From the NCBI RefSeq assembly GCF_058153355.1, contig NZ_CM177019.1: a stretch of 64,000 bases of DNA; one strand, given 5' to 3'. The translations under genes were made by a program, and so were the position numbers. Positions 63,134 to 64,000 of this stretch are shown in pieces. A model generated the notes under the pieces. The model was not told the DNA's origin. It made no database searches and saw only the letters and a program-made list of their open reading frames with translations. The stretch's first letter is position 1. Every line of letters starts with the position of its first letter.

Positions 63134-63415
63134 AAAGATGAAGGAAAAGCTGAAGGGCGTCAACCGAAAAATGACCAATGATGGTGAGGAAAAATCAGGG
63201 AAGATGAAAAAAATTCAGGATAAAGGCCAAAGTTCCTCGTACCTGAACATGTGGAATATACCTCATTTAAGATGATATTTATTTGTTTAATTATTTTTTC
63301 TATTAACCGGTGCAACGAGTGTTAAAGCGTGTAATTTTAGGATTATATCAATAGTCACGGTTATACAAACAGTGATAATTTATGAAATAATTTTATTTAC
63401 CAGAGGAATAGCGCA

Positions 63416-64000
63416 TGTATCTTAATACTCAAGTTCAATATAATAAGTTAAATAAAGATGAAAAAAAGATCCTGTTGTTACAAAAGCTAGCCCATTTAAC
63501 TGATTTTACTTTTGACAGAATAGAGACATTTTCAGCATTTGGACAATCTACTGAAACAGGTGTTTTTAAATATAAAGATGGCAATGAATTTGTTGTTGTC
63601 CCCGGGGATACAGTAATATTAGGGTGGGATGCCAGTCTCAATAATATGGATGGTCCGACAAAACAAGAATTTGAAGAGATGTTGGAACCAGAAGGTTTAG
63701 ATTTGAATAATTATCTCACCGACTCTTGCACACCTGTCAGGAAGGTTACAATTTCCCCGATGCTGGTTGAAAGAAACGTTCACGCCGAACCAAGTTGGAA
63801 GGAAGTATCTCTTACGGACCCCCGCATCACAGAGAACAGCATGCTGCAAAAATTTCTGTCTGATTATATGGAAAAAATTAATCCTGGAGTTCACGAATTA
63901 AACGCAAGATTGAAATTACAATATATAGATGGGGATTTATTTGCACAAATATATGAATCAATTAGCTATGATGAGTTACTTCAAAATATCCAAAGCAATA
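63416..64000 (+). CDS. hypothetical protein, 3'-truncated by window end (at least 195 codons, AT-rich codon usage, no recognisable motif)
   Basis: Open frame from ATG at 63416 (SD AGAGGAATAGCGCATG) with no stop to the end of the window; lies in AT-rich DNA where K-12 has metL on the opposite strand. Confidence 0.55.

Follow-up and report, generated by a model that had tools for sequence, protein, structure and literature searches.

Tsi3 of A. baumannii, a protein resembling the formylglycine-generating enzyme (FGE), is the immunity protein of Tse3, a type VI secretion system (T6SS) effector, and acts by binding; it lacks the catalytic residues of FGE and EgtB, and the immunity it confers went with binding and could not be transferred from one homolog to another (Lopez et al., bioRxiv 10.1101/2021.05.21.445229). 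The same authors raised an enzymatic option for FGE-like immunity proteins, and described Tsi3 homologs, delimited by an RPS-BLAST cut-off of E<1e-50, in T6SS-positive Proteobacteria, where they lie beside vgrG and tse3 and occur as tandem non-identical paralogs in about 84% (bioRxiv 10.1101/2021.05.21.445229). Heterogeneous polyimmunity loci and polyimmunity proteins were defined by Zhang et al. 2012 (PMC3482391), and most of the text of that survey contains no mention of an FGE-fold family. A region between metL and metF has separately been published as 'GR 31' of extraintestinal and avian pathogenic E. coli (ExPEC/APEC) strains (PMC12928451). Here we describe an open reading frame (ORF) at the right edge of a 64,000-nt stretch of Escherichia DNA (contig NZ_CM177019.1 of assembly GCF_058153355.1; the whole stretch is called the window). 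This plus-strand ORF, which starts at 63415 beside metF and is called the FGE-like ORF below, belongs to an unstudied family whose genomic context points to toxin immunity. We propose, with confidence that is evenly balanced, that its product is an orphan immunity protein that would bind a toxin of competing bacteria, akin to Tsi3 but distinct from it. Such a protein would neutralise, by binding to it, the toxic domain of a polymorphic toxin that rivals deliver, and would have neither formylglycine-generating nor sulfoxide-synthase activity.

The FGE-like ORF opens with an ATG at 63415-63417, behind a Shine-Dalgarno sequence (GAGGA, 63403-63407) read from the sequence, and its frame runs without a stop to position 64000. 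Since 63063-64000 is 100% identical to E. coli 2013C-4282 (NZ_CP027579.1), that genome was used to extend the window (locus L001). It and WL297 are the two carriers among 5,426 complete E. coli genomes; the window strain is absent from these genomes, and its continuation past 64000 is therefore presumed from the carriers. The ORF has its full length of 324 aa in both complete carriers and in 24 of the 24 read contigs that encode the identical protein. Its GC content is 36.5%, with 31% GC at third codon positions against 59% for metF, and its dN/dS is 0.07 relative to E. albertii and 0.22 relative to Escherichia sp. MOD1-EC7003. The FGE-like ORF is a real, functional gene under purifying selection. 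A sequence-only reading of this DNA had noted a plus-strand ORF with a plausible Shine-Dalgarno sequence, placed its start at 63416 and could not assign it to any family. The Shine-Dalgarno sequence, the N-terminus and the open frame at 64000 stand, the start does not, and the ORF proved to belong to a widespread FGE/SUMF1-fold family. That reading had also found no metL coding sequence in the window, rightly, the minus-strand ORFs at 63435-63641 and 63697-63894 being antisense to the FGE-like ORF.

The N-terminus of the protein (MYLNTQVQYNKLNKDEKK..., as it reads in the DNA) is charged and has no signal peptide, and a cytoplasmic, stand-alone protein is the best explanation. The Pfam FGE-sulfatase domain (PF03781) is matched weakly and in part, over residues 184-226 only (i-Evalue 6e-4, 20 bits), so that a full-length match is lacking; the weak sequence matches in the PDB are all to FGE-fold proteins, and hhalign aligns residues 182-251 with residues 208-292 of human SUMF1 at 96% probability. 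An AlphaFold2 model is confident (pLDDT 94.5, pTM 0.91), and structure comparison of the model places CalU17, ToxD, EgtB and FGE among its closest folds. The predicted structure is a confident FGE/SUMF1 (C-type-lectin-like) fold. The family carries the motifs FVFVPGD..LGW, R..V.I.PMLVER, LP(T/S)EDEWEYLCGGG and PNQFGL, and on our own reading of these motifs residues ~58-324 would form one divergent FGE-like domain with an inserted alpha/beta subdomain at ~125-180, after an N-terminal extension of ~55 residues.

The family is large, with 360 full-length homologs at 36-58% identity, several of them named 'SUMF1/EgtB/PvdO family nonheme iron enzyme', and 284 representatives in a 50%-identity cluster library (E<=1e-30). 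Among 100,044 species-representative genomes we found 300 relatives, mostly in gut Clostridia and also in Paenibacillus, Chitinophaga and Fusobacterium, the Enterobacterial ones coming from three species only. The AlphaFold database holds many uncharacterised proteins of the same full-length architecture (TM about 0.9), together with more distant 'DUF7278' proteins, and NCBIfam returned only a 13-bit match to a GldK motif. A plasmid search gave one copy on a Subdoligranulum plasmid and weak matches in Streptomyces and Latilactobacillus. A homolog of 39% identity, with a large downstream ORF like that of the Clostridial arrays described below, was seen on a contig that binning assigns to an uncultured archaeon, Methanomassiliicoccus (L080); this placement may reflect a binning error or a cross-domain transfer.

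To see what surrounds the family, neighbourhoods were compared at 80 species-representative loci, with array neighbours scored by tblastn. In 50 of them the homolog lies in a same-strand array with at least one immunity-array neighbour, and 42 of the 80 have a homolog of a giant polyimmunity protein. The array families in Clostridia are SUKH-3, DUF1963, DKNYY, DUF5713, DUF4241, Imm-NTF2, Imm51, DUF6881, DUF6966, DUF4259, UPF0167 and Imm32, and the NADAR enzyme family is present in the same arrays. The giant array protein, of 2,065-2,232 aa, combines Imm68, Imm33, SMI1_KNR4, SUKH_6, DUF4261, SUFU, DUF7832 and DUF4253. These Clostridial arrays match the polyimmunity loci and proteins of Zhang et al. 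2012 (PMC3482391). Family members are moreover fused to DUF4241, DUF4261, DUF1963, DUF5713 and DUF6966, and more weakly to TPR repeats, and the partner domains are found as separate array genes or as parts of the giant protein, the immunity role of these DUFs being itself contextual. One further supporting lineage comes from a homolog with 42% identity to the E. coli protein, which forms a small array together with SMI1_KNR4/SUKH_6 and DUF7832, on a contig whose flanks (LpxB, SurE, ParAB) look Bacteroidota-type (L099). On a Clostridium contig the homolog stands among HEAT, WGR and ankyrin-repeat genes, all on one strand. From this context and these fusions, in homologs about 37-42% identical, we infer an immunity function, non-catalytic binding, and the transfer of both to the Escherichia copy.

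Several further features of the arrays were observed. In 18 loci a domain of ~225 aa without a Pfam match is either fused N-terminally to the family member or encoded by a separate ORF just upstream (L062 9320-10000; upstream ORFs in L053, L064, L066 and L077), giving a fused protein of about 545 aa or an ORF that overlaps by 4 bp. This domain is 87-100% identical in most such Clostridial loci, which span several genera, and this suggests a recently spread element. The fused protein is indexed in 449 collection blocks. Two large proteins, P0222 (3,008 aa) and P0122 (1,768 aa), have nine and four stretches, respectively, that match the FGE-like profile; in P0122 two FGE-like domains and TPR-like repeats are present, and its C-terminus is similar to the DUF4241 part of P0130. 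Both proteins appear to be polyvalent. Single-linkage clustering had suggested that FGE-like paralogs occur in tandem and that the giant polyimmunity protein includes an FGE-like domain; both were artefacts of other shared sequence, refuted by BLASTP and profile search. Accordingly, hmmsearch with the family profile found no second family copy in the neighbouring ORFs of the 80 loci, the sole extra match being the other half of a frameshifted gene.

Outside the arrays the protein appears to have no company. In Enterobacteria, Paenibacillus, Breznakiella, Chitinophaga and Fusobacterium, and in several metagenomic contigs, the gene is without a conserved partner; no neighbour recurs in the 30 non-array loci, the 115 neighbour ORFs of 23 of these loci, pooled and scanned with Pfam, gave no recurrent theme, and the neighbour ORFs of four Fusobacterium/Leptotrichia loci looked housekeeping-like by eye. 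Since no conserved partner exists and the E. albertii gap holds this gene alone, the FGE-like protein would work by itself.

A number of observations count against an immunity role. The Clostridial array homologs share no more than about 37% identity with the E. coli protein, and the 50 array loci amount to about one clade (mutual identity of at least 50%, about 5-6 subclades), which limits their independence. The copies in Enterobacteria, Paenibacillus, Chitinophaga and Fusobacterium stand singly in the midst of ordinary genes, and the family shows none of the tandem paralog arrays of Tsi3. No cognate toxin was found among the top 20 neighbour families of the non-array loci or in the array gene tables, which cover a fraction of loci at the Pfam level. 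Finally, the conservation is unusually high for an arms-race protein, with low dN/dS, and an enzyme or a small-ligand binder would fit it too.

The residues of the active site bear on this last point. In a bona fide FGE, a copper-binding catalytic Cys pair follows an (R/K)GGS motif. The present family has KGGDGG-C276-NL-C279 instead, and motif reading makes C276 and C279 candidate equivalents of human C336 and C341, the hhalign alignment stopping at residue 251. Position 276 is a Cys in 40 of 56 members of alignment A1 and in 53 of the 80 genome loci, and is otherwise S, G, R, Y, K or others; the fused relatives P0122, P0170 and P0176 lack a Cys at either 276 or 279. As one member of the candidate active-site Cys pair is variable, a classical FGE is unlikely. 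No sulfatase was found within 20 kb in E. coli or E. albertii, nor a recurrent one among the homolog neighbours elsewhere, these neighbourhoods being the scope of the search. In EgtB and OvoA, a DinB_2 domain at the N-terminus builds, jointly with an FGE-like domain, an iron active site with a His triad and a catalytic Tyr. Pfam gave no DinB match in the present protein, in which only ~55 residues precede the FGE-like domain, so that the architecture of EgtB/OvoA-type enzymes is lacking. The protein is probably neither a classical FGE nor an EgtB.

It might still be a genuine member of the SUMF1/EgtB/PvdO superfamily that modifies a small molecule or a protein through conserved Cys, Glu and Arg residues and has nothing to do with conflict, a proposal we consider unlikely. 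It would account for the 22 invariant family positions, which include polar and charged residues (R109, E204, E206, N246, E260, K270 and R319 among them), and for the near-invariant C209 and C279, of which C209 falls where the human EWEYSCRGG motif has its structural Cys. The low dN/dS, the 36-45% identity kept across phyla, the enzymes and pathway proteins among the closest folds and the singletons among housekeeping genes in many genomes are likewise what an enzyme would show. The substitutions at C276, the distant fused members without either Cys, the missing DinB domain, the lack of a recurrent sulfatase or biosynthetic partner gene nearby, and the polyimmunity context with its fusions argue otherwise.

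Enzyme-like conservation and polyimmunity context would be reconciled if the protein were an immunity or detoxification enzyme that reverses or pre-empts a modification made by a toxin, as Tri1 or NADAR-type hydrolases do, and did not bind the toxin. The presence of the NADAR family in the same arrays and the option raised by Lopez et al. are in keeping with this idea, to which we give a small probability: the immunity of Tsi3 tracked binding and did not transfer between homologs, the candidate Cys pair is not universal in the family, and no substrate can be named. In its boldest form the idea would make the family a previously unrecognised, phylum-spanning catalytic immunity class that uses the invariant Glu, Arg and Asn and the near-invariant Cys against toxin-made modifications. 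We rate this as quite improbable too; if true, it would explain conservation above that of binding-type immunity proteins, and a single orphan under purifying selection in Escherichia.

Immunity by binding remains the reading we favor. The genes that lie beyond the window were read from the carriers. In L001 the order is metF, the FGE-like ORF, a MocR/PdxR-like GntR-aminotransferase regulator, alanine racemase, a serine hydroxymethyltransferase (SHMT) pseudogene, a UshA-like 5'-nucleotidase, a 375-aa protein, two further UshA-like nucleotidases, a Tsx paralog, metL and metB, with an intact metL 12.8 kb from metF (gap 12,819 bp). WL297 has the same arrangement, and all 24 of the read contigs encoding the identical FGE-like protein have the same context. 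The middle module (L001 21409-25197) occurs in the window-type allele only, and in it the regulator gene is convergent with that of alanine racemase, with a 56-bp overlap. The SHMT gene carries an internal stop, and MOD1-EC7003 retains only a 132-aa SHMT fragment (L012 11025-11423), so that the middle module looks to be decaying. Further right (L001 25409-32603), three UshA-like nucleotidase paralogs with 57-64% mutual identity stand together with the Tsx paralog, in what looks like a nucleotide-scavenging module. The 375-aa 'cytoplasmic protein' encoded between the nucleotidase genes (L001 27095-28222) has no meaningful NCBIfam match and no Pfam match on record, and its homologs at the same locus in MOD1-EC7003 and Superficieibacter are 60-72% conserved. 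The remainder of the island looks metabolic or transport-related and not like a novel system.

These neighbours offer two other explanations. The FGE-like protein could be a functional partner of the genes beside it, for instance those for the MocR regulator, alanine racemase and SHMT, or those in the nucleotidase/Tsx module, given that the MocR gene follows the ORF on the same strand after 81 bp in which no terminator is predicted, and that the ORF shares its gap with nucleotidase NT1 and the 375-aa protein in MOD1-EC7003 and Superficieibacter too. We find such a partnership very hard to credit, as the FGE-like ORF is the sole metF-metL gene in E. albertii, the genes in between change with every allele, beside homologs elsewhere none of these families recurs, and about 1,800 E. 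coli genomes retain at least part of the nucleotidase/Tsx segment without the FGE-like ORF. Alternatively, an AT-rich gene of sporadic distribution in a variable locus could be an anti-phage defence gene, or the sensor domain of one, and FGE-like domains have reportedly been discussed for NTP-dependent conflict systems. A defence role is equally hard to sustain, PADLOC giving no match at E<=1, PHROGs a weak 'kinase' match through the FGE motif only, and an IMG/VR scan no relative, with no NTPase or effector partner nearby.

The metF-metL gap itself is a multi-allelic (mosaic) recombination hotspot with at least six alleles (Table 1). Between the SMS-3-5-type gap and the right-hand part of the window-type allele the identity is 99.1%, and parts of this right-hand 7.4-kb nucleotidase/Tsx segment have matches in 1,844 of the 5,426 complete E. 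coli genomes, or about a third. The S. electus copy (L029 10001-10977) consists of two overlapping ORFs of 237 and 133 aa and is an apparent frameshift pseudogene. Over the 20 kb to the left of 62809 the window diverges from the carriers by about 2%, a rate at which about 24 mismatches would be expected in the tract that is free of them; the sharp switch in identity at 62808/62809, inside metF, therefore indicates that the allele was exchanged by homologous recombination through metF. The window backbone differs by about 1-2% from the two carriers, its nearest complete genomes, and its best identity among the 5,426 complete E. coli genomes (window 40000-64000, also 30000-36000) is 98.0% for katG-metF and 99.1% for sthA-oxyR-trmA. 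This suggests a deep-branching, poorly sampled Escherichia lineage. Between E. coli and E. albertii, dS is 1.28 for the FGE-like ORF and 0.50 for metF, and the higher value for the ORF fits old alleles or separate acquisitions. Gap alleles would thus be swapped among lineages via homologous recombination in the flanking core genes.

Table 1. Features at the right end of the window, and alleles of the metF-metL gap (coordinates are window positions).
Feature	Position	Gap length	Strand	Remarks
FGE/SUMF1-fold protein, first 195 of 324 codons	63415..64000		+	WP_000281214.1 in 2013C-4282
metF (methylenetetrahydrofolate reductase), left anchor of variable locus	62172..63062		-	296-aa ORF; annotated metF in matching genomes
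katG	59663-61882		-	window ORF list
Tract 100% identical to 2013C-4282	62809..64000			0 mismatches in 1,192 bp; last mismatch 62808, inside metF
Conserved metF upstream region (promoter and MetJ-box area)	63063..63221			common to K-12-type, SMS-3-5-type, E. albertii and MOD1-EC7003 (to ~147 bp) alleles
Left breakpoint, divergence point of metF-metL gap alleles	63217..63221			BLAST end-points and junction sequences
AT-rich leader of FGE-like ORF	63222..63414		+	overlapping sigma-70-like candidates at 63352-63379 and 63362-63391, and Shine-Dalgarno sequence
45-codon ORF, RefSeq 'hypothetical protein'	63138..63275		+	WP_000660586.1 in K-12-type strains; annotated at equivalent site in L002
Allele a, K-12 type		348 bp		
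Allele b, E. albertii		1,388 bp		FGE-like ORF alone (84% aa identity), then hairpin, then metL
Allele c, SMS-3-5 type		7,792 bp		nucleotidase/375-aa/Tsx module only
Allele d, window type		12,819 bp		
Allele e, Escherichia sp. MOD1-EC7003				metF, PTS IIBC, MalI-like repressor, 185-aa ORF, FGE-like ORF (88% aa identity), SHMT fragment, one nucleotidase, 375-aa homolog, metL
Allele f, Superficieibacter electus				metF, frameshifted FGE-like ORF copy, two small ORFs, nucleotidase, 375-aa homolog, metL

The edge of the exchanged DNA can be placed closely. A composition scan of the window gives a GC of 0.52-0.56 for metF and a drop to 0.28-0.43 for ~63100 to 64000, and the replacement DNA, from ~63221, has a GC content of about 35%. 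Upstream of metF, four allele types stay 92-99% identical for the first 150-160 bp and diverge beyond, while the Superficieibacter sequence is already divergent within the compared part of the conserved upstream region. Homology between the K-12-type spacer and the window ends after 155-159 bp, and the BLAST end-points lie 155-160 bp from metF. All but one of the 5,426 complete E. coli genomes match the first 147-159 bases upstream of metF only, and just two match the whole 938 bp (63063-64000), a rarity that is far beyond chance.

These results change the picture drawn by the sequence-only reading, which saw an AT-rich foreign segment from about 63250 in the place of metL, took it for the edge of a horizontally acquired insertion, with any novel system mostly outside the window, and advised a look for direct repeats or an integrase at the far end. 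The composition and the foreignness relative to K-12 are borne out, but the breakpoint lies further left, at 63217-63221, where homology to the K-12 spacer ends, so that the K-12 spacer is without this DNA. The segment is indeed rare and was moved by recombination, as the identity of 62809-64000 to the carriers indicates, but it is no discrete integrase-type island. No integrase is annotated in the 12.8-kb gap of L001, no tRNA was found in the island, and the two gap ends share no word of at least 9 bp, so that no flanking repeats are seen; what the window holds is one allele of a region common to E. albertii, MOD1-EC7003 and Superficieibacter. Nor has metL been replaced or lost, since the carriers keep it beyond the island, and the island's other genes, most of which are also present in about a third of E. 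coli and belong there to a variable region already published, do not look like the novel system that was expected.

Upstream of the FGE-like ORF, the promoter candidates of the leader were located in L001 (window coordinates equal L001 coordinates plus 43062), and the one at 63362-63391 has a TG-extended, sigma-70-like -10 element. They are weak candidates, because the promoter and terminator scan found promoter-like sites at chance level only. The 45-codon ORF overlaps the metF promoter and spans the breakpoint, so that its C-terminal half changes by allele; it is probably an annotation artefact and not a gene. An Rfam scan of 61800-64000 gave no match.

If the immunity role holds, the family would be a second group of FGE-fold immunity proteins besides Tsi3, common in the polyimmunity loci of human-gut Clostridia and with orphan copies in E. 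albertii and in one rare lineage of E. coli, and the automatic name 'SUMF1/EgtB/PvdO family nonheme iron enzyme' would be misleading. The single gene between metF and metL in E. albertii makes a simple case for the hunt for a cognate toxin. For annotation, the metF-metL gap should be regarded as a recombination mosaic and not as an insertion site of mobile islands.

Compared with Tsi3, the present family is alike in being a single FGE-fold protein in which the FGE catalytic cysteines are not conserved, in having no DinB domain, and in its proposed toxin-binding role. It differs in being found mainly in Firmicutes, with some members in Bacteroidota and Fusobacteria and few in Enterobacteria; in having no T6SS genes nearby, its flanks here being metF, metL or metabolic genes; and in its weak, partial match to PF03781, its N-terminal extension and its insert. 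It is these described features, and not a sequence comparison, that set the two apart; the PDB matches of the FGE-like protein included no Tsi3 chain. Other FGE-fold proteins are more remote: PvdO, SUMF2 (pFGE), PorK/GldK, CalU17 and ToxD are only 19-21% identical to the FGE-like protein, are periplasmic or secreted or lie in biosynthetic clusters, and none of them has the full EWEYLCGGGSRTL(F/W)RWGD and KGGDGGCN(I/L)CGG motifs. The likeness to polyimmunity loci (PMC3482391) lies in homologs that stand in same-orientation arrays with SUKH, Imm32, Imm51 and Imm-NTF2, beside giant proteins with Imm33, Imm68 and SUFU, and in others fused to array domains, whereas the window copy is a solitary orphan outside any array. 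As to the locus, GR 31 (PMC12928451) occupies the same chromosomal gap and its size matches the 7.8-kb SMS-3-5 nucleotidase/Tsx gap, but it is without the left 5.2 kb of the window-type allele, which hold the FGE-like ORF, the MocR regulator, alanine racemase and the SHMT pseudogene; the window allele is a rare form of a variable site already known from Escherichia genomes.

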